DNA of 64,000 nucleotides from Planctomycetota bacterium (GCA_965223845.1 CBDCXR010000004.1:6223857-6287856), one strand, 5' to 3'. Counted from the stretch's first letter, positions 629 through 64,000 are shown. Notes: generated by a model from the letters alone, not told the origin. Numbers and translations: made by a program.

Positions 629-3600
629 TCAGCACTTGTCGTAGAGATCGCAACCGAGCGAATCCGCGGGGCTCGGATCCGGGCCGCAGTCGGTTCCCTC
701 CGGTCCGTGGCCGCCGATCGGCGGGGGGCCGTCTCCGAAGAGGCGATTGAGGCCGAAAATCGGATCGGCGATGTTGTACGCCGCGTCGCCGTTCACGTCC
801 GCGGTCTCGGTACACGGCGGTGCACTGCCGTCGCCGAACAGGTCGTTCAGCATGAAGATCATGTCGGCGATGTTGACGGCGCCGTCGTTGTTGGCGTCGC
901 CGCGACGGAACTCTTGGCCGCCGCCGTCACCCGTCACGGTGTCCGCGCCGGCCTCGAAGTTCCCTAGGACTTCGCTCCAGCTGAGCGCGCGGTCGTACAG
1001 ACGAAACTCGTTGATCGATCCGTCGAGCATGGGATCGTCCCACTGCGAGCGCCCGAGCCAGTTGTTGAGCTCGAGCATGTCCGCGATCGAAAAGTGCGTA
1101 TCATTCTGGTCGACCCGCGAACCGTCGACGAAGAGCGCAACTCGACCTTCGTCGCCGTTCCAGACGACGACGATGTGCTGCTCGACGCCGTTCGGCATCG
1201 TCGCCGCGTTGAGTTGCCGCTCGACGCCCGTCGGGCCGTCACGATAGCCGAAACGAAGCGAGTTTCCGCCGCTTCTCGGCGTGAGGAAGAGGTTGTACGT
1301 CGTCGCACCGCCATCGGAGAAGTCTTCGCCGCCGACGGAATTGCCGAGATCGAAGAGGCGCTGCCAAGCGGGAGAGAACGCATTCCCGTTCCAGGTTGCC
1401 CACAGCTCGAACGTGACGTTGTTCCCGAGCGCCGAGATCATCTCGTTCGGAAGATCGACGTAGGCGCCGGGCGGATCCGCGGGCGGTGACTGACCGTTGT
1501 CGTTCGAGCTCTGAGCGCCGGGGTTGTTGGTGAACACGGCCTGACCGTCGAACGCGACCTCGCCGTAGCCTATCCCGTCCGCGCCGCCGTTCGCATCGGA
1601 CGCGTCGGCCGTGAACGAGTATCGGTGCGCCGGACCGCTCGAGAGATCGGCGGGCATCACCGCATTCACCGTCCAGTTGACTTCCGCGGTTCCCTCCGAG
1701 TTGGTCGCCCTGACGCGAACCTCGAACGAAGCCGGTCGGGGGTCGGGAATCGTGTAGTTCACGAGACCGCCCGGCGTGACCGTCGCGCCGTCCGGAGACA
1801 GAGCTTCGACCGTCGGAACGGGGACTCCCGAGATCGAAAGTTGCCGAGCATAGACCGTTTCGGTCGGTCCGATCTCGTCCTCTGCCGGAACGCCGGTGAT
1901 CTCGGGCGCGACGGGATCGAAGAAGTCACTGAACTCCGTATTGAAGTTGTGCTCGATCTCCGCGTCCCGGAGCGTGTCCGAGTGGATGCGGAGCCGCGCG
2001 ATGGAGAGCGAGCCCTTGAGCGGAATGTTGACCGCGACGCCGTCCGGCTCGAGCTGGCCCGCCACCGTGATGCGCGTGCAGCAATGGGTGTCGATGGCGC
2101 CGACGCCGAGCTCCTCCTCGTTCTGGAGAACGCCGTCGGCGTACACCCGTGTCGTCGTTCCGTCGTAGGTATAAACGAGGTAATGCCAGATTCCCGCCTC
2201 GGGTGCGCCCGGTGTGAAGTCATTGTCGACCCAGCCGATGTCAGCGGTCGCGCCGCCCCAGTGTCCGATGGCGCCGAAGTTGCCGTGGTCCCCGTAGTTG
2301 AAGCTCATGTTCGAACCGTCGGGACCGCCGCGCCGTCCCCAAGCGACGATGGTCTCCTCGCTCGCGATCTCTGGGTTGTACACCCAGGCCTCGATCGATC
2401 GTTTCGGATCGGGGCCGATGATGCTTTCGGGCGCATTCTCGATGCTCTGGTAGAAGTCGTCGGTGAATCCGTCCGGCGGATTGAAGGTCACGGCGGCGAC
2501 ACCCTCGACCGTCTCGAGGAAGGGCTCACCGACTCGCTCGAAGTCGCCGGCCTCGCTGTCTTCGGCGAGATTGGTCCAGAAATCTTCGCCCGCCGATTCG
2601 TCGTCGGCGTCGAGGTGGACGACGAGCTGACCGGCGACCGCGAGCTGGCCCACCGGGGGAAGTCCCTCGCGCGAGACCGTCCACGATGCTTCCGTTTCGC
2701 CGGCTGAGTTCGATGCCTTGATCGTGATCTCGAAGGAACCCGGCTGCGGATCGGGAAGTGGGACCGAGAGCGAGCCGCGTCGCGCGAATTTGCCCGACTC
2801 CGTCAGAGACGTATTCGCGGGTGCCGCGACGATCTCGACCGACGGCAGCGGGAAGCCATCGACCGCGAACGTCGCCGTGTACTCCGCCTCCCCGGCGAGG
2901 TAGGTCTCGTCGTCCGGCACGCCCACAAAGACGGGCGCGACCGGCGTGATCGGGAAGTCTTCGCGCTCGAGCTCGTAGTTGTTGGCGATTTGCTCATCGG
3001 TAAGGACGCCGTCGTGGATGCGGAGGCGTCCGATCGAGAGCGAGCCCTTGAGCGGCAGATTGATCGCGATGCCGTCCGGCTCGAGCTGTCCGGCGACGGT
3101 GATGCGCGTCTCGCCGTGAGTATTGATCACACCCGGTCCCAGGACCTCGTTGTTCGCGTCGCACTGCTCTTCGCTGATGCAACCATCGGCGTAGACGCGC
3201 GTCACCTCACCGTCGTAGGCGTAGACGAGGTGGTGCCACTGCCCCGCGACCGGCGCACCCGCGGTGAACGCGTTGTCGACCCAGCCGATGTCCGGGCCGT
3301 TGCCGCCCCAGTGGCCGATCGCGCCGAAGTTTCCGTGGAACCCGTAGTTGAAGCTCATGTTCGAGCCGTCGGGACCGCCGCGTCGTCCCCAGGAGACGAT
3401 CGTCTCTTCCGACGCGATCTCCGGGTTGAACACCCAAGCTTCGATCGTTCGCGTGGCGTCCACTCCAATGAGACCTTCCGACGCGAACTCGACGCTCTGA
3501 TAGAAGTCGTCGGTGAAGTCGAAGTTGAAGGTGACGGCCGTAGCGCCGTTGATGTCCTCGACAAACGGCTCGCCGACTTTCTCGAAGTCGCCGACGGGGC

Positions 3601-3766
3601 TGTCGTCGACGAGGTTGATCCAAAAATCTTCGCCGGCGGATTCATCTCCCGCGTCGAGGTCGACGACGAGATCTTCCGTCTCGAGCTGGGCGAAGGTGTC
3701 GCTCGGAACGAAGAACGTACCGAACGCGCACACTACGGCAATCGCGACCGCGCGATGTCGGTGCAT
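629..3766 (-). CDS. Secreted protein with three LamG/concanavalin-like (Laminin_G_3-type) domains and Ig-like linkers, ending in a double dockerin-like Cys-rich module
   Basis: The start was reset to the internal ATG (MHRHRAVAIAVVCAFGTFFVPSDTFAQ, a signal peptide) preceded by AGGAGG. Two ~350-aa near-identical repeats each carry the W..HLVY.YDG....VYADG LamG signature. A third, divergent LamG ends ...INEFRLYDRALSWSEV. The C-terminus reads RGDANNDGAVNIADMIFMLNDLFGDGSAPPCTETADVNGDAAYNIADPIFGLNRLFG...LGCDLYDKC. Confidence 0.7.
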   Translation of the reverse strand: MHRHRAVAIAVVCAFGTFFVPSDTFAQLETEDLVVDLDAGDESAGEDFWINLVDDSPVGDFEKVGEPFVEDINGATAVTFNFDFTDDFYQSVEFASEGLIGVDATRTIEAWVFNPEIASEETIVSWGRRGGPDGSNMSFNYGFHGNFGAIGHWGGNGPDIGWVDNAFTAGAPVAGQWHHLVYAYDGEVTRVYADGCISEEQCDANNEVLGPGVINTHGETRITVAGQLEPDGIAINLPLKGSLSIGRLRIHDGVLTDEQIANNYELEREDFPITPVAPVFVGVPDDETYLAGEAEYTATFAVDGFPLPSVEIVAAPANTSLTESGKFARRGSLSVPLPDPQPGSFEITIKASNSAGETEASWTVSREGLPPVGQLAVAGQLVVHLDADDESAGEDFWTNLAEDSEAGDFERVGEPFLETVEGVAAVTFNPPDGFTDDFYQSIENAPESIIGPDPKRSIEAWVYNPEIASEETIVAWGRRGGPDGSNMSFNYGDHGNFGAIGHWGGATADIGWVDNDFTPGAPEAGIWHYLVYTYDGTTTRVYADGVLQNEEELGVGAIDTHCCTRITVAGQLEPDGVAVNIPLKGSLSIARLRIHSDTLRDAEIEHNFNTEFSDFFDPVAPEITGVPAEDEIGPTETVYARQLSISGVPVPTVEALSPDGATVTPGGLVNYTIPDPRPASFEVRVRATNSEGTAEVNWTVNAVMPADLSSGPAHRYSFTADASDANGGADGIGYGEVAFDGQAVFTNNPGAQSSNDNGQSPPADPPGAYVDLPNEMISALGNNVTFELWATWNGNAFSPAWQRLFDLGNSVGGEDFSDGGATTYNLFLTPRSGGNSLRFGYRDGPTGVERQLNAATMPNGVEQHIVVVWNGDEGRVALFVDGSRVDQNDTHFSIADMLELNNWLGRSQWDDPMLDGSINEFRLYDRALSWSEVLGNFEAGADTVTGDGGGQEFRRGDANNDGAVNIADMIFMLNDLFGDGSAPPCTETADVNGDAAYNIADPIFGLNRLFGDGPPPIGGHGPEGTDCGPDPSPADSLGCDLYDKC

Positions 3767-4111
3767 GATCCAACCCTCCTTTGTTCGGCGCTGATTTCGC
3801 GCTTCCGGCAGAATCAGCGAAGAGATTTCAGCCCGCTTCGTTGCGTAGGCGACAAAGATCCTGGACCCTCGACCAGACCCGCCATCGTAGGCCCAGTCGG
3901 CGGGAGCCGTCAATCGACGGATTGTCCAGGGCGCAGGATCGCAGAGGCGGTCGGACGCCCGGTTCCGCGATTCCGTGTTCGATCCACGTGCGCTAAGCCC
4001 CGCGATCGGTGGTTCGTGAACTGTTTCGCGGCGTTGGGCCCCGCAGCTTCTCGAAGGGAAATCGTCCGTCTCGAGTTGCCGCGGATCGACGACCCCGACT
4101 CCGTCAGAAGA

Positions 4112-5222: not shown

Positions 5223-6140
5223 GTGCTCGACGGGGCTCGAGACGGCGAACGTCTCGAGCTCCATCGACTCGCCTCCTCGTCTGCCGACTCTGGTTTCATT
5301 CCGCATCCGAAGGAAAAGGGCGTGAACCTCGCGCACCTCGTCAGAGCTCGCGTGCGACTCGACCTGCGCGAAGGCGACTTCGACTCCGCTCTCCGGCGAA
5401 CGCGGCAAATCCTCGAATTCGGGAGGCGCGTTGCAGGCTGCGAATCGTTCGGAGATTCAATCGTGAGCGTCATCGTGCAGATCTGGGGACTCGCCGAACT
5501 CCGTCGCGTCGTCGAGCAGGGAACGCTCGGTTCCGACGTGTGTCGGGAATTGGTCGGCGATCTCGAAGCCTACGAATTCGATCGCCGTCGAGTCGATCGT
5601 CTCTGGGCGGCGGGTTACCGCGACGCCGTTCAGACGCTAGAGGAAAGCCCATGGCTCGGAGATTCGCGGTTCTATCTCCGGAACCGAACTCTCCAGCGCG
5701 TGGTGACCATCTATCGCGCGGAGCGAGCGTGGATGAAGGAGACCCAATGGACGGCCCCGCCGTTCCCCGAAAGCCGGGAGGCGTTTGTGCCCCCGACGCC
5801 ATCGAATTGGTTCAACTCTGACGGCGAGCACGTTTACTTCACCGAGCTGGTGAGTGGCGGTTGGTGGGTCGACCCGTAGAAACTCGACTTCCAGGTCCGA
5901 GCGACTCGCCTCGTCCTCGCCATGCGAGTCTATAGACTCGAACACGAGGTGCTCCCCGAGACGCTCGACGTCCTCGTCCCGGACTTCATCGATCAGGTGC
6001 CGATCGATCCCTTCTCCGCCGAGAAGAAACCGCTCAATTACTCGCGAAAAAATCGCGAAATCTGGTCGGTGGGCGCCGAGGATCCTCTGCACGTCCACCG
6101 TCCGGAAGAACTGGTCGTGCGGATTCCGCCGTCCTGGTGA
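5223..6140 (+). CDS. Hypothetical protein whose frame is interrupted by one in-frame TAG (5877-5879) and continues for 87 more codons
   Basis: ORFs 5223..5879 and 5922..6140 share one frame with a single TAG between them. Both halves have non-repetitive, protein-like composition (W/Y/F present), and GC is higher at codon position 3 than position 1 in this frame. It is more likely coding than the antisense ORF 5637..6308. No domain was recognised. Confidence 0.35.
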
Positions 6141-6216
6141 AACGACGGCCGCCGGGATCGGGGTTGTCCCGTCCCGGCGGTCTTTTGGTCGGACGCGCTC
6201 GTTCGCAGATACTTCC

Positions 6217-7896
6217 TTACTCGCAGCTCGAACTCTTCTCGCACCCGAGCCCGTCCGCCGTCGGATCCACCCCGCAGACCGCACCCGGCGCCGCGGGAGC
6301 CCGACCACTCGAGAAGAGGTAGTTGAGCATGTAGGACGGATCCGAGATGTTCACCGCGCCGTCGTCGTTCGCGTCGAGCGCGTCGAGACACTCGACGTCC
6401 GCGCTTCCCCCGAAGAGGTGCGAGAGACTGAGGATCGCATCGCTGATGTCCATCCGCCCGCTCGCGTTCGTGTCGCCGCGGCGGAAGCGCGGTTCAGACG
6501 GAGGCGGATCGACGGGGTCGACCGGGTCCTCTGGGTCCTCTGGGTCCTCGGGGTCGACGGGCTCGCAGCTCCGCACGAGATGGCCGTCGTAGCCGAGCAG
6601 CGCGAGGCCGTACCGGCTGTCGGATCGGACGACCTTTCCCGCGACGACGAGTCCGCGACCGGTTGCCGCGATCGCTCTACCGAACGAAGTCCCGTGCTCT
6701 CGCGCGAACTCGATCGACCGAATTCCTTTCGTCGCCCACGATGAATCGAGAACCCCGTCGTCGCCGTAGCGATAGACGACGGCGGCATCGGATTCCGACC
6801 CCACCGTGAAGAATCCATCGGTCATTCCGAGTGCGATACCCGCTACATCGTCCGGGACGAGCGCGTGTCCGAACCCCCCCGCGAAGTCTCGGTCGATTCC
6901 ACCGTCGGGATCCATCCGAAACACGCCGTTTCCCGTCAGGAGGAGGTAACTGCCGTCAGGGCGGCGAAGGACGTCCTTCGCGGAGAGGTGCGGAGCGAGG
7001 GGGAGGTACTTCTTCCCGCGACGTCCGAACGACTCGTCGAGTCGACCGTCGGGAAGATACCGAACGGCGACCGGACCATCGCCATCCCTCCCGAGGGCGA
7101 GGATCGAGCCGTCGCCGCTCACGTGCATCGCCGAAAGTTGGGCTCGGTCGCCGAGCTTCGTGACCACGACGCCGTCGCCCCCGAACGATCGATCGAAACT
7201 CCCGTCCGGGTGAATGCGCAGCAAGGAGAACTTGAGGTTGCAATGACCGAAGAACGGACAGTCTTCGTCGGAGAACCCTCCGAGCACAATCCGCCCGTCG
7301 AAGAGCACCGTCATCGCGTGGACCTCTTCCCAGTTGTCGGTCCGGTTGATCATGAGCTTCCCGCCGTCAGCGAAGGACTCGTTGAGTGTTCCGTCCATAT
7401 TGAGACAGACAAGCGCGCGGTTCGACCGATCGTTAGTCGTGAGAGCTACGTAGATGCGGCGAGAGATTCGTCCGCCCGTGACGGCGATCGCTCGCGGAAA
7501 CGCCTCCCCGCGACCGAAGCTCAGGCGCACCGTTCCTAAATGTCCGAAGTTCCCGTCGATCTGACCGTCGCGGAGGTAGCGCGTCACGACGCCTTCCCCA
7601 TCGATCTGACTGGCGAGGAGGATTCTCCCGTCCGATTGAACCGCGACTCGCGAAATGAACTTGCGACCTACGCCGGTCGGGTGGGAGATCGTTCCGGTGT
7701 GAGTCCCGTTCGGGTGGAGTGCGCCGAAACCGCACTCATCGGCGCGAGCGGCGTCGGGCCCGACAAACGAGAGTGCCGCGGCGAGGAACGTCGCCGCGGC
7801 GAGAGCTCGCGGTCGACGTTCGCGGGTTCGAGGCGAACGATCGCCGCTCCCCGACGCTCGAGTTCGAAGTCGAGACGGGGCCATCGCACCGGCCAT
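6217..7896 (-). CDS. Secreted delta-60-repeat (SBBP-like) beta-propeller protein with a C-terminal double dockerin-like Cys-rich module
   Basis: Start set at MAGAMAPSRLRT...RPRALAAATFLAAALSFVGPDAARA (signal peptide). It has repeated DGxLDxSFGxxG motifs (DGSFDRSFGGDG, DGRLDESFGRRG, DGGIDRDFAGGFG, DGVLDSSWATKG) and a (DPE)n linker. The C-terminus reads RGDTNASGRMDISDAILSLSHLFGGSADVECLDALDANDDGAVNISDPSYMLNYLFSSG...LGCEKSSSCE. Confidence 0.7.
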   Translation of the reverse strand: MAGAMAPSRLRTRASGSGDRSPRTRERRPRALAAATFLAAALSFVGPDAARADECGFGALHPNGTHTGTISHPTGVGRKFISRVAVQSDGRILLASQIDGEGVVTRYLRDGQIDGNFGHLGTVRLSFGRGEAFPRAIAVTGGRISRRIYVALTTNDRSNRALVCLNMDGTLNESFADGGKLMINRTDNWEEVHAMTVLFDGRIVLGGFSDEDCPFFGHCNLKFSLLRIHPDGSFDRSFGGDGVVVTKLGDRAQLSAMHVSGDGSILALGRDGDGPVAVRYLPDGRLDESFGRRGKKYLPLAPHLSAKDVLRRPDGSYLLLTGNGVFRMDPDGGIDRDFAGGFGHALVPDDVAGIALGMTDGFFTVGSESDAAVVYRYGDDGVLDSSWATKGIRSIEFAREHGTSFGRAIAATGRGLVVAGKVVRSDSRYGLALLGYDGHLVRSCEPVDPEDPEDPEDPVDPVDPPPSEPRFRRGDTNASGRMDISDAILSLSHLFGGSADVECLDALDANDDGAVNISDPSYMLNYLFSSGRAPAAPGAVCGVDPTADGLGCEKSSSCE

Positions 7897-8089
7897 TCGG
7901 TCGACGTCCGGCCAGCGAGCGAAACCGTGAGTCGGAGAGTAGGTTCGAGCTTCCATTCTGGGCCTCCTTGAGACGGGGTGGGTGACGAGCTGCGGATCCG
8001 TCCGCCCGGATCCACTCGCCCCCGCGCCGTCCCGCGCGAAGAGGGGCCAGAATTCTTCGTTTTTCTCAGGGTCGCGACGGAATGAGACC

Positions 8090-8722
8090 TCAGCCTCGCT
8101 CGCTTGGCGTCTCCCCCGCGCCGCCGAGGGCGTCGTAAAGCCAAGCGCGCGCAAAGCTCCAGTCGCGCTTCACCGTCCGCGTCGACGATCCGAGCACCGC
8201 GGCGGTCTCCTCGACACTCAAGCCGGCGAAGTAGCGAAGCCGCACGGTTTCCGCGAGTCGCGCATCGAACTCTTGTAGGCGATCGATCGCGTCGACGAGT
8301 GAGAGCGTGTCGTCGGGGTCGCTCGCCGCGAGGTCGGCGACGTCGAGAAACTCCCGCGCGTTCCCGCCCCCGCGCTTCTCGCGAGACCGTCGCCGCGCGT
8401 ACTCGATGAGGATACGCCGCATCGCATCGGCCGCCGCGTGAAAGAATTGCGCACGCCCGGTCATCGGACGCGCGCTGAGATCTCCGACCAGACGAAAGTA
8501 CGCCTCGTGGACGAGGTCGTCCGCCTGGAGCGTGTGTCCCGCGCGCTCACGGGCGATCCGGCCGCGAGCGATCGAGCGCAGCTCGCCATAGACGACTTCG
8601 ATGAGCCGATCCCTCGAGTCGACATCTCCGGCGCTCACCGCCTCGAGAAGCGACGTCACCTCGTGGGGCGGCGGTGTCGCGGGATCGGGTTCACCTCGAC
8701 TCGGTCGTGGAGGCTCGCTCAC
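8090..8722 (-). CDS. ECF-type RNA polymerase sigma-70 factor of the subgroup usually paired with Ser/Thr kinases
   Basis: N-terminal [35 protein letters not shown]. The region-4 helix-turn-helix is [34 protein letters not shown]. It overlaps the upstream kinase gene by 32 nt. Confidence 0.85.
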
Positions 8723-11700
8723 GCTCGAATTCCTCGAACCGCTTCTTCCACGCTCGCTCCCGCTTCTCGTCTCCTGCGGCCTGGTAGAGCCGCACGAGTC
8801 GGTCGAGCGTCAGCCGCAGCGTCCGCTCGAGCGTACGCGGATCGTCTTTCATGTTGCGGTAGCTTTCGATGAGGAGCGTTCGCGCTTCCTTCAATCGACC
8901 TTGGCCGAGCAGGCTGTCACCGAGAGCGCTTTCGGCGGCCCAGATCTGAATCGCGTTCTCGTCCGCGTTTTGCCTCAAGTATCCTAGGCACTCCTGCAAG
9001 ATCTTTTCGGCCTTCACGTGCTTCTCGTTCCCGACGAGGACGAGTCCGTACATCAAGAGAGCCGACGCGTTCCGCGGCATCTGTTCGGGCCGCGCCGCCG
9101 CGCGGATGATTTCGACGACGCGCTCGATGTGCGGGAGCGCCGCCTCGAAGCGTGCTTCGGACTCGAGGCACGTCGCCATCGCCGCGTGGGCCCGCGCTAT
9201 TCCGGCGCGAGTCGTGCCGATCCGCTCCTGCAGGTCGAACAGCTCCTTGAGGACAGTCTCCGCGCGATCGCATTCACCCGTCCGAACGTAGGCTTCCCCG
9301 AGATTGAGGAGCACGACGAGAATCGAAGGGTTTTCCGCGCCAACGGCTTCCTTCAGATCATCGATCGTTTCCTCGAGGAGCGCCTTGGCCTCCTCCGCGC
9401 GTCCGAGCGCGGTGTAGTTCGCCGCGAGGTTGGTCATCGACTCGAGCGTCCGGGCGTGCTCGGGACCGAGAGTGCGTTTTCGGATTTCGAGTGCCTTGCC
9501 GCTCCACTCGGCGCCTTCGGAGTGGTTTCCCTCGTAAGTGAAGGTCACTCCGAGCGCCGCGTGAACCTCCGCCGTCTGGCTATGATCCGCTCCGTAGATT
9601 TTCTCGTAGGCAGCGAGCGCACGGCGGAGGTTGTCCTTCGCCTTCTCGTAGCGAGCTTGCTGGCTGTGAATGACGCCGACGTTCATTCTCGCCCGTGCGA
9701 CGGGAGGAAAGTCCCCGCCGTAGACCCGTGTGCCGATTTCAATCACCTCCTCGAAGAGCGCGATGGCTTCATCGTGGCGCTCGAGCAACGGAAGAACGGC
9801 CGCCAGATCGTGCATCCCCCGGAGCGTCTTCGCGTGCTCCGGTCCGAGAACGCGGCGGCAAGCGGCGAGAGTCTCGCGAGAGAGCTTCTCCGATTCATCA
9901 ATTCGCCCGCTGTAGTGGAGCGCTCGCGCGCGATCGAAGGAGGCGGTGAGAACCTTCGGATGCTCGGCGCCGAGTTCCTTTCGCAACCGCGGAATGACCT
10001 CCGATGTCACTTTCTCGGATGCGACGAATCGTCCCGCCGCGCCTAAGACGGCGCCGAGGGTCGCGATCGCGGAGAGTGTCACGTCGTGGTCTTCGCCGCC
10101 GAGAAGTGCGGCTAGATCGCGCGTCTCCATGAGGAGGGATTCGGCTTCCTTGAGTCGGCCAAGCCTCGCCGACACCTCCGCCAAGTGGACGGTCATGCGA
10201 AGCGTCGTGAGGTCATCTTCACCGAGAACTCTCTCGCAGACTGCGCGCAGATCTCGAAACGTGGACTCGGCGTCCCGGAACCGCGCCATCTCGGAATACG
10301 TCTCGCCGAGTCCTTCGCGCGCGAGGATGGTCGGCAGAGCGTCGTCGCCGAGGCGCGCCGAACGAACCTCGATCGAACGCTCGAAGCTCGCCTCGGCGAG
10401 TTTGAAGCGACCGAGACCGAGGTGCGCTCGACCGACCGTGTGGCGGAGCGTCGCCTCGATTTCCGGTTCGTCCCGGAGAGCGTCCCAAAGGTCGGCTCGC
10501 GTGTAGTCGTCGAGGAGTTGGCGGACGGTGTAGGTCGGCCCGCGCGCGGTTTCCGGGTCGGCGGCGTGAAACATCTCGTCGATGAGCCCGAAGACGCGAC
10601 GGGCGGTGTCGGCCTCGCGGCGCGCGATCTTCGCGCTCTCTTCGGCTTTCGCCTGGGCGATGCGTGCGTTTTCCTTCTCGGCGCGCTCGCGCCCCTCGGC
10701 CTCCTGTGCCGTTGTCGCTGCGGTTTGCGCGAGATCGCGTTCGTCGGCCGCGACGATGAAACCCCAAATCGCGAGCAGGAGGCCGGTGATGAGCGCCCCG
10801 GCAACGACGCCCGCTCCAGCGACCGCGACGCGATTTCGACGGATGAACTTCTTCACCCGATACGCCGTCGAGGGCGGTCCCGCCGCGACGGGTTCGTGTT
10901 CGAGAAACCGTCCGATGTCGAGCGCGAAGGCCGCGGCGCTCTCGTACCGGCGCGACCGGTCCTTCTCGAGCGCCTTCATGATGATCCAGTCGAGATCGCC
11001 GCGGAGTAGTCGTCCGAGCTCGCGGGCGTCGACTTGGCGCGAACCGGCGACCACCGTTCGGCTCTCGTCGTCCATCGAACTCACCCGCGTCGACGGCTTC
11101 GGCGGCGTTTCCTCGCGAATGACTCGCTGGACCTCCTTGTAGCCTCGCTCGAAGAGTTCCTTCGTGTCGAACGGAGTCGTGCCCGTGAGCAACTCGTAGA
11201 GGAGGACTCCGAGCGAATAGATGTCGCTCCGCGTATCGATGTCGAGACTCGACATCTCGGCTTGCTCGGGACTCATGTACGCGGGCGTGCCGACCATCGC
11301 GTGAAAGCGCGTGAAGAAGGTCTTTTCGGTGAGCTTCTGGTGCGTCGCCTTCGCGATGCCGAAATCGATGATTTTCGGCACGGCGCGGCCGTCGTTGACC
11401 GTGACAAGGACGTTCGACGGCTTGAGATCGCGGTGGATGATCCCTTTTTGGTGCGCGTGCTGAACCGCGTCGCAGACCGGGATGAACAGCTCGAGACGCT
11501 CCCGCGGAGAGAGGTTGTTCGCGTCGCAATATTCAGAGATCGCCACGCCACGGACGAGCTCCATCACGAAGTAGGGACGACCCTCGCGCGTCGAACCCGC
11601 GTCGAGCACCCGGGCGATGTTGGGATGCTCCATCATCGCGAGCGCTTGTCGCTCGGCCTCGAACCGAGCGATCACCTCGCGCGTGTCCATGCCGAGCTTG

Positions 11701-12134
11701 ATCACCTTGACGGCGACGCGCCGGCGCACGGGCGCTTCTTGCTCGGCCATCCACACCGACCCGAATCCGCCTTCGCCGAGCTTCTGAAGAAGCTTGTAGG
11801 GGCCGATGCGAGAACTACGGGACGGATCGAAATCCGCCGACGCTTCGATCTCGCCCCCCGTCGAATCCGGCTCGGGCGCGACCGTTCCCCGCTCGACCGG
11901 AAGGGTGGGACCCGCGTCCGCTGCGGCGGCGACTCGCTGAGGTGTCTCCGAGGCGTCCGTCGCGAGAAATGAATCGGCGGCCGCGTGTGCAGCGAGGAGG
12001 CGTTCGATCTGCGCTTTGATCGCGTCGTCGTCTCCGCAAGCTTCGGCGAGAAACGATGCGCGCTTCTCTTCGGGAAGCCGTACGGCGTTCTCGAAGATCC
12101 GCTGCAACCGACTGCGCCCGTCGCGATCCGCCAT
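8691..12134 (-). CDS. Ser/Thr protein kinase with a transmembrane segment, coiled coil and a long TPR-repeat domain
   Basis: Kinase motifs: [14 protein letters not shown] (glycine loop), [37 protein letters not shown] helix ([28 protein letters not shown]) is followed by ~600 aa of TPR-like repeats. Confidence 0.9.
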
Positions 12135-12351
12135 CTCCGTCGTCCAAGTCCGGGTGATTCACGAGCTGTGTCTCGAGCCGATCATCGTAACCGGTTTGGG
12201 CGGAGGAGTCCGCCGTGCGGGATTTCCTCCGCATGCCGGGTCCGGTTGACTTGGTCGACGTTGGCCTACCGTTGGTCGTGCGTTCGGCGCAGGCGCGTAG
12301 TATGACTAAGATGCTCGACCCTGCGGACCTGGGGAGGCAGACGAGACCGAA

Positions 12352-28999: not shown

Positions 29000-29110
29000 A
29001 GCCCACCATCTCTCCGGCCGAACGGACTCTGTTCTCGTCGTGCCGCGCCGCATCGGTTCCAATGGGAGTCTGTGTCCCGGGATCGATCGCACTCGAGAGA
29101 GGTACGCCGA

Positions 29111-30310
29111 ATGAATCCGTCCCTTCGTTTGCTGTCTCCGGTCGGTGCTGTGGGGTTGGCGGTCGCTGCGCTCTCGCTGTCGACGCCTGCGTTCGGGGTC
29201 GACCTCTTCTGGTCGGGGAGAGTGGACGACGGCGATCGCGAGGGCGTGTTCGTGCGAGATCTTTCCGGGGGCGGCGAGGATCGCGTCCTCGCCCACGTGG
29301 AAGGCCAAGTGGGCGCGATCGCGATCGACGAGCCGAAACGAACGCTCTACTGGACGACGCGAGATGGCGCGAGCCGCGAGAGCGAAATCTGGCGGGCGGA
29401 CCTCGACGGCGATGGCGCGGAGCGATTCTGGACGTCGCCCGACGCCATCCCCGCGCTCGCGCTCGACTCCGTCCACGGTTTCTTGTACGCCGGCACGTCG
29501 GACGGCCTTCGGCGGTTCGATCTCGACACCGGCGAGATCGAACCGCTGAGCCGCGAGATTTGGACGGGCCAGGTCGCGGTCGATCCGGAGCGCGGAGCGC
29601 TCTTCTGGATCGCGCCCGCGCCGGTCGAGCCCGGTCGCTACGGACCGCCGTCGGTCTGGCGATCGAATCTCTTCGGCGAGGACCCCGAGCTCGTCGTTCG
29701 CCCGCAGTCGCTCACGGGCGACCTCGGTCTCGCGCTCGACACTCGAGCGGGAAAGGTGTACTGGGCAGCCGTCGACTACGCCGAGTGTTCCTTGGTGGAA
29801 CGCATCAGCCGCGCGAATTACGACGGCCGCGACGCGGAGGTCGTCTTCTGCGGCGGGCCGACGCTCGATGACTTTCCGAGCGAGATCGCAGTCGATCCGA
29901 ACTCGAGCCGCGTCTTCTGGCAGAACTCCGAGATCACGCCGGTCTTCGCGGTCGATTTCGCCGGTGCGAGAAACGTCGAGGTATTCCGCGTCGGCTCGCT
30001 ACGCTCGATGGTCGTCGGTCCTCCGGAGCCGGGTCTCGAGTTCCTCCGCGGAGACGCGAACGGAGACGGCGCGGTGCAGCTCGCCGACGCGCTGCGAATC
30101 CTCGGGTGGCTCTTTCAAGGGAGCGCGATCCCGCCCTGCCTCGCCGCCGCCGACTCGAACGCCGACGCGTCGATCAACCTGAGCGACGCCACGTTCGTTC
30201 TCTATCACCTTTTTCTCGGACGCGAAGCTCTGCCGCCGCCGTTTCCCGCGTGCGGCGGGTCGACGCGCGGTGGCGACGTCGAGCTCGGCTGCGCGGCGCC
30301 CGGCTGCTGA
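29111..30310 (+). CDS. Secreted YWTD-type (LDL-receptor class B-like) beta-propeller protein with a C-terminal double dockerin-like Cys-rich module
   Basis: Start MNPSLRLLSPVGAVGLAVAALSLSTPAFG (signal peptide). Repeated blades contain LYWTTRDG, LFWIAPAP, KVYWAAVDY, RVFWQNSE. The C-terminus reads RGDANGDGAVQLADALRILGWLFQGSAIPPCLAAADSNADASINLSDATFVLYHLFLG...PACGGSTRGGDVELGCAAPGC. Confidence 0.7.
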   Translation: MNPSLRLLSPVGAVGLAVAALSLSTPAFGVDLFWSGRVDDGDREGVFVRDLSGGGEDRVLAHVEGQVGAIAIDEPKRTLYWTTRDGASRESEIWRADLDGDGAERFWTSPDAIPALALDSVHGFLYAGTSDGLRRFDLDTGEIEPLSREIWTGQVAVDPERGALFWIAPAPVEPGRYGPPSVWRSNLFGEDPELVVRPQSLTGDLGLALDTRAGKVYWAAVDYAECSLVERISRANYDGRDAEVVFCGGPTLDDFPSEIAVDPNSSRVFWQNSEITPVFAVDFAGARNVEVFRVGSLRSMVVGPPEPGLEFLRGDANGDGAVQLADALRILGWLFQGSAIPPCLAAADSNADASINLSDATFVLYHLFLGREALPPPFPACGGSTRGGDVELGCAAPGC

Positions 30311-35541: not shown

Positions 35542-36264
35542 TCAGCGACCGTGACGAAGACGCTCGCCGAGGGCGAGCGGAAGTCCGGCTTTCTGGAACT
35601 TGTGTACCGCCGCGTCGATGTCGTACGGGAAGCGGCAGAGACGAACGTGCGCCTGATCCGTGTCGAACAGTGCACAGGATGCCCGCGGGTCGCGATCGCG
35701 CGGTTGCCCCACGCTCCCGACGTTCACGATCGTCTGATCCGCTGCGCGTAGCGAGATCTCCGTCTCCAGCGTGTACGAGATCACCTCGGTCTGAACGAAG
35801 GTCACCGGCACGTGAGAGTGGCCGATGAAGCAGACGGCGTTCTGCATATACGCCATCGAAAGCGACGCGTCGTACGTCGTCTGCACGTAATCGAAAAGCT
35901 CGGGCGAGCAGAGAGTTCCGTGCACGACGTCGAGCCCGTCCAGGTGGTGGACGAGCGGGAGGCTTCCCAGGTAGTTCACGTCGTCGCTCGAGAGCTTGTC
36001 GCGTGTCCAGATCGTCGCCTCGCGGGCCAGCGCGTTGAAGTTCGCGATGCTGAGCTTATCTGCGACGGCGAGGTCGTGATTCCCGGCGACCACGTAGCTC
36101 GAGATCTTGCGCACGCGGTTCAGGCATTCCGCCGGCTCGGGGCCGTAGCCAACGATGTCACCGAGGCAGATGAACTCGTCGACCCCTTCTCGTTCGAGGC
36201 CGGCGACAACGGCCTCGAGCGCATCGAGGTTGCCGTGAACGTCTGAAATGATGCCGTAGCGCAC
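35542..36264 (-). CDS. Calcineurin-like metallophosphoesterase
   Basis: ISDVHGNLDALEAVV, GDIVGYGPEP and GNHD motifs. The start is assigned to the GTG (VRYGIISDVHGN) preceded by GAGAGG. The longer N-terminal extension in the ORF track runs into the parS array and is rejected. Confidence 0.7.
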   Translation of the reverse strand: MRYGIISDVHGNLDALEAVVAGLEREGVDEFICLGDIVGYGPEPAECLNRVRKISSYVVAGNHDLAVADKLSIANFNALAREATIWTRDKLSSDDVNYLGSLPLVHHLDGLDVVHGTLCSPELFDYVQTTYDASLSMAYMQNAVCFIGHSHVPVTFVQTEVISYTLETEISLRAADQTIVNVGSVGQPRDRDPRASCALFDTDQAHVRLCRFPYDIDAAVHKFQKAGLPLALGERLRHGR

Positions 36265-36462
36265 CGTGCTGATCCTCTCGCGTCCGACTTCAGCTGGAGT
36301 CCTTTGGTCAGGAAAGTATAGGACACGACTTCGATCCGCGCCGGTTTCCGTGCCGAATCGATGGATTGATGCGGAGGCGAGCACGTAAGGCACTATCCTA
36401 AAGCGAGATAGGTGTCTTCCGCGAACGTCCCCCGCGTGCGCGCCGCCGAACTGAGTTCGCCG

Positions 36463-37047
36463 GCGCGATGCGATGTTCCACGTGGAACATTTTGGGCCGC
36501 AGTCGGGCGTTTTCAGCTTCGTTCGAATCGCGTCAGTCAAACTCATGCGTTTCTCCGGCAGAGGTTGACGCGCGAGCGGGGCCCCCAAATCCGTTCGACA
36601 GGATGTTCCACGTGGAACATCGGCCGATCCACGGCCGTCGGATGCGTTTCCAGGTTGGCTCAGTCGCGGGTGAGCGCCAAGCGCGCTCGTCCCCGGGTGG
36701 ATTCAGATGTTCCACGTGGAACATTCCGTCTCCTGGGATCTTCGGGGCTCCGCGATCGGCGCCGCGGATGTTCCACGTGGAACATTCCTTCATCCGGGAC
36801 CTCCCGGTGTCCCGCGATCAGCGCGATGCGATGTTCCACGTGGAACATTCCTTCATCCGGGACCTCCCGGCGTCCCGCGATCAGCGCGAGGCGATGTTCC
36901 ACGTGGAACATTCCTTCATCCGGGACCTCCCGGCGTCCCGCGATCAGCGCGCCGCGGATGTTCCACGTGGAACATCTGAGGCGGGATCCACGATGTTCCA
37001 CGTGGAACATCGTCCGCTGAGTAAGTTCGATGTTCCACGTGGAACAT
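36463..37047. promoter_or_regulatory. parS: Array of nine identical 18-bp perfect palindromes ATGTTCCACGTGGAACAT, a parS-like centromere cluster upstream of parAB
   Basis: Copies at 36463, 36603, 36707, 36768, 36831, 36894, 36958, 36993 and 37030, each 18 bp and all identical. The core TGTTCCACGTGGAACA differs from the ParB-binding parS consensus TGTTNCACGTGAAACA only by a symmetric A-to-G change. Copies 4-6 are embedded in a ~63-bp higher-order repeat, with a degenerate fourth copy around site 3. Confidence 0.8.
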
Positions 37048-37139
37048 CCAGGCCCGTGACCCGCCTTCCCGTTGAAACGCGATTCGAAGGCCCCTATGAT
37101 CGCCGTCTGGATCCCCGGAAGTGGAGGAATGCGAGGATC

Positions 37140-37916
37140 TTGGTAGAGTGCATCACGATCGCAAGTCAGAAGGGCGGAGTGGGGAAGACCACCACCGCGG
37201 TGAATCTCGCCGCTAGCCTGGCGCTTGCTGAGCGACGGGTGCTCCTCGTGGATCTCGACCCGCAAGGAAACGCGGCGAGCGGGATAGGCCTCGCTGAGGG
37301 TGAAGTCCCGGATCGTGGGGGATTCGTGTCGGCGGCGCTTGCAGAGGAGGATCTCTCGCCGTTCGCCGTGGGGACCCGGTACGAAAACCTCTCGGGTTTG
37401 TGTTCCCCCGCTGAGTTGTCTCAACTCCCGCTGATCCACAGCTTGCAGCAGGAGGACGGGCTCGATCGGTTCCGAAAAAGCCTACGGGCGGTCGCCGAGC
37501 AGTTCGATTTCCTCCTCTTCGACTGCCCGCCGTCCCTCGCGGGGCTTCCGAGCGTGGCTCTGTCCTGCAGCGACAAGGTGCTGATCCCGGTGCAGTGCGA
37601 GTACTACGCGATGGAAGGGCTGAGTCAGATTTTGCCAATAATACAGAAATTGCAGAAAACTACAAATCGGGATCTGCGCGTTGGGGGCCTACTCCTCACG
37701 ATGTTTTGCGAGGAGCTCGAGCTCGCGCGCGAAGTCGCGGGCGAAGTACGCGGGTATTTTGCTGCCGAGGTGTTCGAGAGTGTGATCCCGCGGGACGTCG
37801 TTCTCGCCGAGGCGTCGAGTCACGGCGTCCCGGCGTTTCACTACTCCCCGCTTGCACGGGGGACTTGGGCGTACTTGGAGTTGGCGCGAGAGGTACTCGA
37901 TCATGGCCGGGCGTAA
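37140..37916 (+). CDS. parA: Chromosome partitioning ATPase ParA/Soj
   Basis: ITIASQKGGVGKTTTAVNLAASLA (deviant Walker A), LLVDLDPQGN, DFLLFDCPPS. The start is tentatively the TTG 11 nt after GGAGGA; no in-frame ATG lies near the conserved N-terminus. The stop overlaps the parB start. Confidence 0.85.
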   Translation: MVECITIASQKGGVGKTTTAVNLAASLALAERRVLLVDLDPQGNAASGIGLAEGEVPDRGGFVSAALAEEDLSPFAVGTRYENLSGLCSPAELSQLPLIHSLQQEDGLDRFRKSLRAVAEQFDFLLFDCPPSLAGLPSVALSCSDKVLIPVQCEYYAMEGLSQILPIIQKLQKTTNRDLRVGGLLLTMFCEELELAREVAGEVRGYFAAEVFESVIPRDVVLAEASSHGVPAFHYSPLARGTWAYLELAREVLDHGRA

Positions 37917-38907
37917 ATTGGGCCGGGGGCTCGACATGCTGATCCGAAAGCGCGAGGCGGATTCGGATCTCGAAGGCGGGACTCGGCTTCCGCCCGTCGC
38001 GGACGCGGAGCAGGAACCTTCGGCGCCGACGACGGAGCCCGTCGCCGAGCCGGAGCCGGAACCCGAGCCTGAGGCCCAAGCCGAGGACGATCCCGTCCTG
38101 CGCGTGGTTGCGGTCGATCCAGCGAGCGTCGATGCGAACCCCGAGCAGCCACGTAAAGTATTTGAGCGAGGTGAGTTAGATAACCTCAAGGCGTCGATCG
38201 GCCGCGACGGCTTGCTGCAGCCGATCCTCGTTCGCCGGCTCGGGACGGGCCGCCTGCAACTCGTGGCGGGCGAGCGCCGTCTGCGGGCGGCGCAAGAGCT
38301 CGAGCTCGAGGAGATCCCCGCGATCGTCGCTGAGGTCACCGACGATCGGCTGCTCGAAGTCGCGCTCATCGAAAACATTCAGCGCCAGGACCTGAACCCG
38401 ATCGAGACGGCGGCTGCCTACCGCAATCTCATGCGGGCGAAGCGGTGGACGCAGGAGGAGCTCGCGCGCGCGCTCGGAGTCGGTCGACCGAGCGTCTCGA
38501 ACACGCTTCGCCTTCTCGATCTCCCCGCGGAGATGCAAAAGGCGCTCGCCGCCGGGCACATCAACATGGGGCACGCGAAAGTGCTCCTCGCCGTTGAGGA
38601 CGACGAGGATCGCCGCGAGCTCTTCGAGCGTATCGCCGAGGAACGTCTCTCGGTCCGTCAGCTCGAGGACGCCCGCGAGGAGGCGATGGCCGCCCGTTCG
38701 GACGGGGAGTCCGGCGGGCGACCGGAACGGCCCCGCCGGCGTCGCGATCCAAAGATCGCCGCCCTCGAGGAGGAGCTCCGCGCGTCGCTCGGGACGAAAG
38801 TCGTAATTCAGGAAGGCGCGCGAAAGGGGCGGGGACGCGTCACCATCGAATTCTATTCCGCTGACGATTTTGAGCGGATCCGAACGCGGTTGCTCGCGCG
38901 GAGTTGA
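37903..38907 (+). CDS. parB: Chromosome partitioning protein ParB/Spo0J
   Basis: MAGRKLGRGLDMLI..., the ParB box LQPILVRR...QLVAGERRLRAAQ, and the HTH EELARALGVGRPSVSNTLRLL. Confidence 0.9.
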   Translation: MAGRKLGRGLDMLIRKREADSDLEGGTRLPPVADAEQEPSAPTTEPVAEPEPEPEPEAQAEDDPVLRVVAVDPASVDANPEQPRKVFERGELDNLKASIGRDGLLQPILVRRLGTGRLQLVAGERRLRAAQELELEEIPAIVAEVTDDRLLEVALIENIQRQDLNPIETAAAYRNLMRAKRWTQEELARALGVGRPSVSNTLRLLDLPAEMQKALAAGHINMGHAKVLLAVEDDEDRRELFERIAEERLSVRQLEDAREEAMAARSDGESGGRPERPRRRRDPKIAALEEELRASLGTKVVIQEGARKGRGRVTIEFYSADDFERIRTRLLARS

Positions 38908-39443
38908 CGGCGATTCGCGCGCGGGTTATCGGCCTCGATGGCGGGCCGGTTCTTCAGTTGACTCGGGGAGAAAAGGGTTCACACTGACCACTCTGTCGCG
39001 GTTTCAGGACGGCTGCGAGAGAGAAGCCGGCGGTCGCCGGCCCAGGAGCTCGAGTCGCCCGCGGTCCACTTTTGGGATGCCTCGTTCTTCGGCTCGAACC
39101 GGTTTTTTCGGACCGGCTCCTACCACGACGTGAATCGTCCGGAAGCCCGAAGTGGAGTGTTCAGAGGAGTCATCGACGAGCGGCGCGTGAGGGCCGTTCG
39201 TTCGTTCCATCGGGCCCGGGGGATGATCGATCGGACGCGAAGGCCGCGTCTCGGCGCTCGCGTTTCTCTCGCGAGCGAACCCGGGGTCGTCCCGCCGCGC
39301 GTGTTCCCCGTCCGGGCGAGGCCGGGTGATCGTTCAGACCCTTGCAGCCGCCCTGCAGCGAGCGAGGGCCGACGCGGGTCGGTCCCCCGACGGTCGGGAC
39401 CGAGCTTCGCCTCGGCGCCGCGACTCCGACGCGACGAAGCCGC

Positions 39444-62603: not shown

Positions 62604-63722
62604 CTAGGACACGACGGGCGCGCGCTCTTCGAAGAACCAGTCCCAATCGGCGATGAGCTCCGGATCGGGCGCGGACGAATACGTCACCTCGAACGATCCG
62701 TCGTCCGCGCGGCGCGCCCGGGTCGGCTCGGCGAGAAGAAGCCGAGTCTCCTGCTGCGTCACCACGGGGAAGCCGTAGTGCTCGTTCCGGTAACCGAACG
62801 GGCCGGACGAGGCATGACGCGCTCGCACGAACTCACCGTGCGCGCGAATCCGTGCGGCAACTCGCTCGCGCCCCGTCTCGACGACGCGGCCCAGGTCGTC
62901 CCCGAGCGCTCGAGGAAGAGTGTCGTCGAGCTCGTAGCCGATCGAGTTTCGCCCCGAGGCCATCGCCGCGGCGGCCGTCGTTCCGAGCCCGAGGAACGGG
63001 TCGAGGACGGTGTCGCCCTTCGCAGAGAACATGTGGACGAGCCGGTAGGGGAGCTCGAAGGGAAACGCCGCGCTCCGCGTTCGTTCTTCGCGATCGAGCG
63101 CGCGCAGAGAGAGAGCTTGTTTCACCGGATTCAAGTCGGACCACACGTCCGAGAACCACTGGTTTCGCTCCTCCCAGAAGTAGGCGCTTTCTCGACGATT
63201 CGCCTTCTCCGCTGCGCTCGGAAAGTGACGGCGGCCGCCCTTTCGAAAAATGAGCACGTGCTCGTGCTCGAGCGTGACGTACGCGCCGGGAGGGAGCATG
63301 CCCGATCCCATGAACTTGTTCGGCGCGTTGGTCGGCTTGCGCCAGAGGACGGGCGGCAGCGCGACGAAGCCGAGGTCGAGGAACGCGCGGAGGACGCGCG
63401 AGTGGTTCGGGTAGAGCGCGAAGCGTCCGTCGAGGGTGCGCGTCGCATCACCGACGTTGATGCACGCGATGCCGCCGTCGACGAGGACGCGCGCGAGCTC
63501 TCGCCACACGAGGTCGAGAACGCGGTGCATCGCTTCGAAGGCAGCGACACCGTCGCTTCGCTCGAGCGCTGCTCGGACGTCGCCCGACTGCGACGCGAAG
63601 AGATCGTCCCACATCTCGATCATCGGATAAGGGGGCGACGTGACGACAAGCTCGACCGCGGCGCCCGGGACCTCCGTCATGCTGCGGGCATCGCCAATGT
63701 GGATTCGGTGACGGGTGCGCAT
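62604..63722 (-). CDS. DNA methyltransferase (N6-adenine / N4-cytosine beta-class, SPPY motif) with a ~120-aa C-terminal extension
   Basis: RIHIGDARSMTEVPGAAVELVVTSPPYPM carries motif IV SPPY. ...DTVLDPFLGLGTTAAAAMASGRNSIGYELD is the AdoMet motif I region. It follows the DNA_methylase N-4/N-6 domain order. Confidence 0.8.
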   Translation of the reverse strand: MRTRHRIHIGDARSMTEVPGAAVELVVTSPPYPMIEMWDDLFASQSGDVRAALERSDGVAAFEAMHRVLDLVWRELARVLVDGGIACINVGDATRTLDGRFALYPNHSRVLRAFLDLGFVALPPVLWRKPTNAPNKFMGSGMLPPGAYVTLEHEHVLIFRKGGRRHFPSAAEKANRRESAYFWEERNQWFSDVWSDLNPVKQALSLRALDREERTRSAAFPFELPYRLVHMFSAKGDTVLDPFLGLGTTAAAAMASGRNSIGYELDDTLPRALGDDLGRVVETGRERVAARIRAHGEFVRARHASSGPFGYRNEHYGFPVVTQQETRLLLAEPTRARRADDGSFEVTYSSAPDPELIADWDWFFEERAPVVS

Positions 63723-64000
63723 GATCGAAATCGTCCGGGCTCAGGCGGAAGGGCGAGCGAGTGCGCGCGGATTCTACTCGAGTCGGCACCGGCGGGGGCC
63801 CGGAATCCGGACGCGCGACGGGATCGGCGCGATCGTCTCGAAACGGGACAGGCGGGAGCGTTGAACCGGGGATCCGTCGCTTCGAGTTCTTGCCGATTTG
63901 GTCGCGAAACCGGCTCTCGACGAGGCTTCGCCGCGCAATCTCAACCGTCCGGCGGCCCGCGCCGGCATGCGAGTTGCCGTTAGGAAGGGTGACCGATCGA

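Follow-up and report, generated by a model that had tools for sequence, protein, structure and literature searches.

Chromosomal parS sites are typically origin-proximal; C. crescentus carries 7 of them and C. glutamicum 10. Most species have 1-4 and a few have 20 or more (PMC10786196), with about 10 known in B. subtilis and 10 in P. aeruginosa (PMC7022226, PMC5961200). The closest described chromosomal system is that of M. xanthus, where 22-24 parS with the consensus TGTTCCACGTGGAACG occupy about 3 kb and precede parA by about 4 kb (PMC3899335; Harms et al. 2013, PMC3778016), and where ParB binds the 22-parS cluster in vitro (Iniesta 2014, PMC3899335). Among plasmid centromeres, sopC of the F plasmid consists of 12 direct 43-bp repeats, and SopB binds a 16-bp inverted repeat present in each of them (PMC3177203). 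We found no published work on parS or ParB in the Planctomycetota, a phylum with atypical cell division, for which the locus analysed here provides a first centromere prediction.

A pattern search of the window (the whole 64-kb stretch of DNA analysed) identified nine exact copies of the 18-bp palindrome ATGTTCCACGTGGAACAT. They lie in the 872 bp that separate a divergent metallophosphoesterase gene from a canonical parA-parB operon of chromosomal type. The features of this region are as follows:

35542-36267, minus strand: metallophosphoesterase gene (Metallophos_2, 2.5e-21), the left border of the intergenic region
36473-37047, no strand assigned: parS array, nine identical 18-bp palindromes ATGTTCCACGTGGAACAT with the 16-bp core TGTTCCACGTGGAACA
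36473-36490, 36603-36620, 36707-36724, 36768-36785 and 36831-36848: parS copies 1-5, exact ATGTTCCACGTGGAACAT
36894-36911, 36958-36975, 36993-37010 and 37030-37047: parS copies 6-9, exact ATGTTCCACGTGGAACAT
36706-36975, no strand assigned: 63-bp tandem repeat of 4.3 units, each with one parS and a 45-bp spacer (TRF period 63, 90% matches)
37072-37100, plus strand: candidate parAB promoter of sigma70-like type, TTGAAA-17 nt-TATGAT (10 of 12 positions matched)
37140-37916, plus strand: parA, 258 aa, Soj-type Walker ATPase with TTG start and KGGVGKT motif (AAA_31, 7.7e-47; CbiA)
37903-38907, plus strand: parB, 334 aa (ParB_N, 1.5e-29; HTH_ParB, 1.6e-34; ParB_C, 1.3e-12)

The core TGTTCCACGTGGAACA is a 16-bp palindrome that fits the canonical parS consensus tGTTNCACGTGAAACa and, in all nine sites, matches 14 of the 14 specified positions of the degenerate consensus TGTTNCACGTGNAACA. 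All nine copies are preceded by G, and copies 2, 7, 8 and 9 are also followed by C, which extends the palindrome to 20 bp there. The sites are confined to the array: with up to three mismatches allowed, ATGTTCCACGTGGAACAT had no match in the 64-kb window beyond the nine, and TGTTNCACGTGNAACA with up to two mismatches recovered the same nine only, none of them outside 36473-37047. The 8-bp half-site TGTTCCAC occurs once outside the array in the window versus 0.62 occurrences expected. A REP/BIME-like dispersed repeat is not supported, as all copies in the window fall in a single intergenic region. Structured RNA was rejected, Rfam yielding sub-threshold matches to miRNA hairpin models on both strands, an artefact of the palindromes.

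The sequence-only reading of this DNA had claimed nine exact parS-like palindromes in one cluster, and the count stands, with no match to ATGTTCCACGTGGAACAT in 100 dinucleotide-preserving shuffles of the window. The start-to-start distances are 130, 104, 61, 63, 63, 64, 35 and 37 bp, in agreement with its estimates of about 63 bp for copies 3-7 and about 36 bp for copies 7-9. The true extent of the array is 575 bp (36473-37047), the start given earlier (36463) being 10 bp ahead of copy 1, and its density is one parS per 64 bp. Between the last copy and the start of parA there are 92 bp, where about 90 bp had been proposed; the coordinates of parB were also correct. Across 90 parS spacings from seven arrays (the window and six relatives) no 10-11-bp periodicity was detected (Rayleigh p > 0.3); the minimum was 28 bp and the modes were 35-45 and 55-65 bp. 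Given this minimum and the lack of helical periodicity, neighbouring sites could be occupied simultaneously, though they are unphased.

The array is of a known kind, the clustered chromosomal parS of Myxococcus, at its dense extreme, fused to a putative parAB promoter and with lineage-specific repeat turnover. It shares with the M. xanthus cluster many near-identical canonical parS in one short cluster upstream of chromosomal parAB, as well as a large GC-rich genome (9.1 Mb in M. xanthus). The myxobacterial cluster is, however, sparser, with one site per roughly 140 bp, whereas the arrays of the window and of the related planctomycete locus L001 are 2-3 times denser, with minimum spacings of 28-35 bp. 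It also lies about 4 kb off, while the planctomycete array fills the gap directly upstream of the parAB promoter candidate. The window further differs by its nine identical perfect palindromes and by its phylum (Planctomycetota), and the planctomycete arrays as a group by recent tandem or higher-order amplification. About 20 or more parS within a few kb beside parAB, the Myxococcus-type arrangement, are found in the related loci L001 and L208, but not in the window (9 in 575 bp).

With sopC, the array has in common short tandem units, each with one 16-bp palindromic site of the ParB family, beside a partition operon and at spacings of tens of bp. However, sopC is plasmid-borne, lies downstream of sopB and is built of a strictly regular 43-bp unit with a SopB-specific sequence, whereas the window represents a chromosome of about 7.9 Mb with the universal chromosomal parS upstream of parA and only 4.3 regular units. 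A plasmid centromere of the F sopC type was rejected on the grounds of the 7,869,199-bp contig, the regularity of copies 3-7 only and the chromosomal parS sequence. A type Ib or type II iteron centromere (e.g., R1 parC, with a ribbon-helix-helix adaptor) was rejected as well, the ParB here being a helix-turn-helix protein and the 16-bp palindromes lying outside the -35 hexamer. Ordinary chromosomal parS share the 16-bp consensus, the ParB family and presumed CTP-clamp loading with the array, but are scattered across distances from several kb to hundreds of kb, leave kb-scale gaps and often differ in sequence. The sequence-only reading had set the dense cluster apart from the usually few and scattered chromosomal sites: it is indeed at the dense extreme, but not unprecedented on a chromosome, in view of M. 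xanthus (PMC3899335) and of the arrays in other phyla described below.

Both partition proteins are of chromosomal type. The TTG start of parA at 37140 is preceded by a ribosome-binding site, GGAGGA (37125-37130), and is supported by alignment with the N-termini of ParA from relatives. The parA and parB genes overlap by 14 bp and form one operon. ParB contains the N-terminal peptide KLGRGLDML and the motifs NPEQPR, GERRLRA and ENIQRQDLNPIE; in the alignment of ParB from the clade, GERRxRA, NPxQPR, ENxxRxxL and the N-terminal KLGRGL peptide are invariant. By established work on ParB CTPases, KLGRGL is the ParA-activating peptide, and NPEQPR, GERRLRA and ENIQRQDLNPIE are CTP-binding/hydrolysis motifs. 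Solved structures of Spo0J, ParB and Noc were matched with E = 1e-40 to 1e-45, Noc being top by score. Residues at about 20-66 (window 37960-38100) form an acidic, Pro/Glu-rich low-complexity linker, which includes EPVAEPEPEPEPEAQAEDD and joins the KLGRGLDML peptide to the CTP-binding domain; its length is highly variable among relatives (293 to 350 aa for the total ParB). Another side observation concerns the DNA directly 3' of parB: in three other loci (L206:2669-3475, L209:2072-2830 and L211:7009-7779) it holds a gene whose product, of about 250-270 aa, has no Pfam domain and might be a lineage-specific partner in partitioning. No such gene is present at the corresponding position of the window (38908-39341).

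The promoter candidate is a consensus match only, with one found versus 0.2 expected. Its -35 hexamer begins 25 bp past the last parS, so that the sites lie upstream of the hexamer and do not overlap it. Hexamers at the same position were seen in relatives: TTGAAA/TAAGAT in L001, TTGCAA/TATGAT in L002 and, by eye, TTGCAA/TACAGT in L208. To our knowledge, planctomycete promoters are poorly characterised. The divergent metallophosphoesterase gene is also found in L001, L205, L208 and L211, and is a conserved neighbour, probably not a functional part of the array.

To place the array in its clade, we compared loci around ParB homologues 56-63% identical by alignment to that of the window (50-59% by BLASTP). 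These show the gene order of the window: a large LptD_N-like protein, TatA, the metallophosphoesterase, the array, parA-parB, OEP and an M28 peptidase. In each of the six relatives whose upstream region is retained, a parS array occupies this position:

L001 (9.18-Mb contig): 26 sites in 1.1 kb, one per 43 bp
L002: 5 sites in 0.46 kb
L205: 9 sites in 0.74 kb
L206: at least 9 sites, the first 58 bp from the contig end (array possibly truncated)
L207: 12 sites in 1.3 kb
L208: 27 sites in 1.9 kb

The distance from the last parS to parA is 56-106 bp in all seven loci (the window and six relatives), and no parS was found outside the arrays in the six related loci (8-21 kb each). The 16-bp cores are almost always perfect, and degenerate copies with two mismatches account for 6 of 97 sites, while the spacers differ in both length and sequence. 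The repeat units are lineage-specific: the window has one of 63 bp, L001 one of 177 bp that holds four sites, and L208 one of 246 bp. Fewer sites are present in loci that are more distant or truncated. L211 (ParB 48% identical by alignment) has two sites at the same position, L209 (ParB 47%) has one site within the 307 bp before its contig end, and L210 (ParB 56%), whose contig ends 147 bp before parA, has at least two. Altogether, the array is a conserved, dynamically expanding feature of one planctomycete clade and no accident of one genome; the synteny comparison that the sequence-only reading had proposed thus yielded conservation across the clade together with recent lineage-specific amplification.

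The window itself bears traces of this amplification. Copies 3-7 fall inside the 63-bp tandem repeat (36706-36975), of which three units are 95-100% identical (95-97% to the reference unit), which points to recent duplicates and not to independent events. Recent local amplification gave rise to copies 4-6, and possibly copy 7. The flanks of copies 1, 2, 8 and 9 are unrelated. Each amplified 45-bp spacer (36786-36830 and its repeats) holds a short palindrome of its own, CCGGGACCTCCCGG, and a CGCGATCAGCGCG motif, either of which could be a passenger of duplication or a second binding site.

As a background for parS density, we took 80 diverse metagenomic parB loci among the matches listed, with ParB at most 46% identical to that of the window. 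The most parS in any 600 bp was 0 in 44 of these loci, 1 in 22, 2 in 9 and 3-5 in 5, so that 75 of the 80 had no more than two and the maximum was five. The earlier statement that chromosomal parS are usually few is therefore correct, on these counts and on the literature (PMC10786196). When one genome per species was scanned for triplets of parS with gaps of 14-44 bp, at least 120 stretches from many phyla were obtained, and most of those listed hold exactly three sites. A few stretches among the matches listed rival the array of the window (the first four below); the last line gives shorter arrays placed directly upstream of parAB:

L029, Lachnospiraceae, 1014-1353: 8 sites spaced 46-47 bp, with parA-parB about 270 bp downstream
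L044, Bacilli MAG (GC 27%), 5384-5894: 10 sites with a period of exactly 55 bp, flanked by dnaX and a deaminase gene, the latter followed by gyrA
L018, Parcubacteria, 7008-7813: array adjoining gyrA
L016, Bacilli, 5922-7979: array adjoining gyrA
L173 and L202, metagenomic, 3894-4060 and 3889-4031: 4-5 sites at 35-43 bp directly upstream of parAB

Dense tandem architecture is thus not unique to the window and recurs, sporadically, in several phyla. Like the window, the arrays of L029, L044, L018 and L173/L202 are dense, head-to-tail series of canonical parS on chromosomal contigs, several of them just upstream of parA-parB; unlike it, they have the TGTTTCACGTGAAACA variant and a strictly regular period, and some lie beside gyrA or dnaX instead of parAB. 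For these arrays (L029, L044, L018 and L173/L202) we found no published description.

The replicon is most probably the main chromosome. A protein 100% identical to the ParB of the window is on record on a single 7,869,199-bp contig, and the named ParB homologues are from Planctomycetota. The genes nearby, coding for acetyl-CoA synthetase, the large protein with an LptD_N-like domain, TatA, an outer-membrane efflux protein and an M28 peptidase, are ordinary chromosomal ones in conserved order; together with the contig size this favours the main chromosome over a megaplasmid. The array had no blastn match at E <= 0.01 among 72,556 plasmids and 50,697 phage records, a threshold that an 18-bp match cannot reach. 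The secondary chromosome or megaplasmid considered in the sequence-only reading is consequently unlikely. Its observation that dnaA is not nearby was borne out: no dnaA, dnaN or gyrB was identified by Pfam among about 30 ORFs of the 64-kb window, and DnaA boxes are neither enriched (3 versus 1.47 expected) nor clustered. Cumulative GC skew climbs through the window with no clear minimum, and AT-rich tracts gave no origin signal.

The ORFs examined between 0.6 and 25.8 kb (600-25811) are all on the minus strand and most of those between 25.8 and 52.5 kb (25756-52536) on the plus strand, with a divergent switch near 25.8 kb. This switch has no DnaA boxes, AT-rich tract or replication genes and so is not evidence for oriC; the apparent intergenic gap there is filled by a 403-aa ORF. 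Other genes of the window encode an N6/N4 DNA methyltransferase (62604-63740, minus strand), a large Ser/Thr kinase with TPR repeats (8691-12158, minus strand) and secreted dockerin type I/LamG/PKD proteins (629-4111, minus strand; 29072-30310, plus strand), a gene content that looks, we presume, typical of Planctomycetota.

Four observations bear on the function of the array: the sites are parS by sequence, ParA and ParB are cognate and have intact motifs, within the 64-kb window the sites are localised exclusively at this place, and the arrangement is conserved in the clade. We consider it likely that the array serves a planctomycete ParABS system as its chromosomal centromere, in the form of a dense platform with many sites at which ParB-CTP clamps are loaded. 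That a clustered parS centromere lies directly upstream of parAB had been proposed in the sequence-only reading; the consensus match, the chromosomal-type ParA and ParB and the clade conservation support this prediction well.

By analogy with established ParB biology, a ParB dimer would recognise each 16-bp parS through its helix-turn-helix domains. Contact with parS would bring the CTP-bound N-terminal domains into engagement and shut the dimer into a clamp, which would then quit parS and slide along the flanking DNA until CTP hydrolysis opens it. Nine such gates in 575 bp, or 26-27 in relatives, would multiply the rate of ParB loading at a single chromosomal position and give rise to a single compact partition complex with a high density of ParB. 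This complex would stimulate nucleoid-bound ParA-ATP and thereby drive segregation, and would probably recruit SMC too. In vitro, a larger number of parS (7, 13 and 26 copies) led to a higher clamp loading rate and a higher condensation force with B. subtilis ParB (PMC8299390). That many copies are needed in this clade is suggested by their conservation. Copy number would shift through local tandem duplication and deletion of units with one to four sites, while selection would hold the 16-bp cores perfect. Further parS may exist elsewhere in the 7.87-Mb genome, and part of the multiplicity could be neutral, a product of very recent duplication.

Since the putative parAB promoter has its -35 hexamer right next to the array, occupancy of this promoter by ParB would be expected: bound and sliding ParB would sit on or cross it, resulting in negative feedback that ties the supply of ParB to the occupancy of the centromere. 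Such feedback is a probable secondary role, less certain than that of the centromere. The ParB-titrating or regulatory element considered in the sequence-only reading is possible as a secondary role, given the promoter-like site next to the array. We think it unlikely that the array is mainly an operator, with ParB on the nine sites repressing or tuning the parAB promoter and perhaps the metallophosphoesterase gene, segregation relying on one site or on parS elsewhere, and the multiplicity serving cooperative regulation or ParB titration. Chromosomal and plasmid ParB do repress parS-adjacent promoters (PMC5521831, PMC7022226), and both the 25 bp that separate the last parS from the -35-like hexamer and the distance from the last site to parA, kept within 56-106 bp in all seven loci, would suit an operator. 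However, the 26-27 sites over 1.1-1.9 kb upstream of the promoter are unnecessary for regulation, for which the promoter-proximal sites alone are well placed, and an operator is compatible with the centromere, as the same ParB-parS complex would serve both. Distinctly unlikely, in our view, is an array in which one or two parS are functional and the rest are neutral, satellite-like by-products of slippage or unequal recombination, its size having no selected function. A single parS is sufficient in model organisms (PMC8299390), the 95-100% identity of the 63-bp units of the window speaks for their recent origin, and copy number varies five-fold among related species, with higher-order repeats of 177 and 246 bp. 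Nevertheless, every member of the clade with an intact upstream region has at least five sites, and cores are perfect or near-perfect despite unrelated flanks (copies 1, 2, 8 and 9 of the window and most of those in L207 and L205), the few two-mismatch copies (6 of 97) notwithstanding. With cores intact and spacers diverged beyond recognition, purifying selection or conversion seems to act on each site.

It is extremely improbable that the palindromes are bound by another protein, such as a CACGTG regulator or a Noc-like ParB paralogue, or that they represent a generic REP-like repeat. The CACGTG core is a common regulatory palindrome, and the top structural matches of ParB by score are Noc proteins; the 16-mer, however, is the canonical parS and not the Noc-binding site, and the ParB of the window has Spo0J-like residues where Noc and Spo0J differ (e.g., aRalg in the query versus aQrlg in Noc), at positions that we take to set parS/NBS specificity. 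Dispersed copies are absent from the 64-kb window and from the flanks in relatives, the association with parAB is strict in the clade and in unrelated phyla (L029, L173 and L202), and sub-threshold hairpin noise was all that Rfam returned.

The centromere reading leaves the current picture of ParABS function unchanged. The locus represents a natural extreme of parS multiplicity, with 9 to 27 perfect sites spaced 28-65 bp apart and fused to the putative parAB promoter, and the clade, with copy numbers from 5 to 27, is a ready comparative series. It makes testable the question of why there are many ParB loading sites where one suffices in model species; loading rate, condensate size, SMC recruitment and autoregulation are candidate reasons. 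A bolder and rather unlikely proposal is that the centromere of this clade is 'regional' and satellite-like, with tens of perfect parS turning over via 63-, 177- and 246-bp units. Selection on its copy number would match the size of the partition complex to very large genomes (7.9-9.2 Mb) or to the unusual planctomycete division, and this complex would assemble mostly through direct occupancy of packed sites, as at sopC, and not through long-range spreading of ParB; the tandem arrays of several phyla would then form an unrecognised class of high-capacity centromeres.

On the practical side, parS arrays break short-read assemblies and draw spurious gene calls, and annotators should expect both. 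Short-read contigs of relatives reach no more than a few hundred bp beyond parA on its upstream side and stop where the array lies or close to it (L206:1-500, L209:1-310 and L210:1-150), which suggests that the repeats break assemblies and that MAGs give minimum values for array size. ORFs of 58-321 aa without a Pfam hit are predicted in the interval from the metallophosphoesterase gene to parA, lying in part or entirely over the parS arrays (L001:7890-8279 and 8598-8774; L205:3463-3933; L208:3595-4560; window 36412-37020), and are probably spurious. Two ORFs across the array of the window (202 and 482 aa) were rejected as genes, their translations being parS-derived MFHVEH and CSTWNI repeats.
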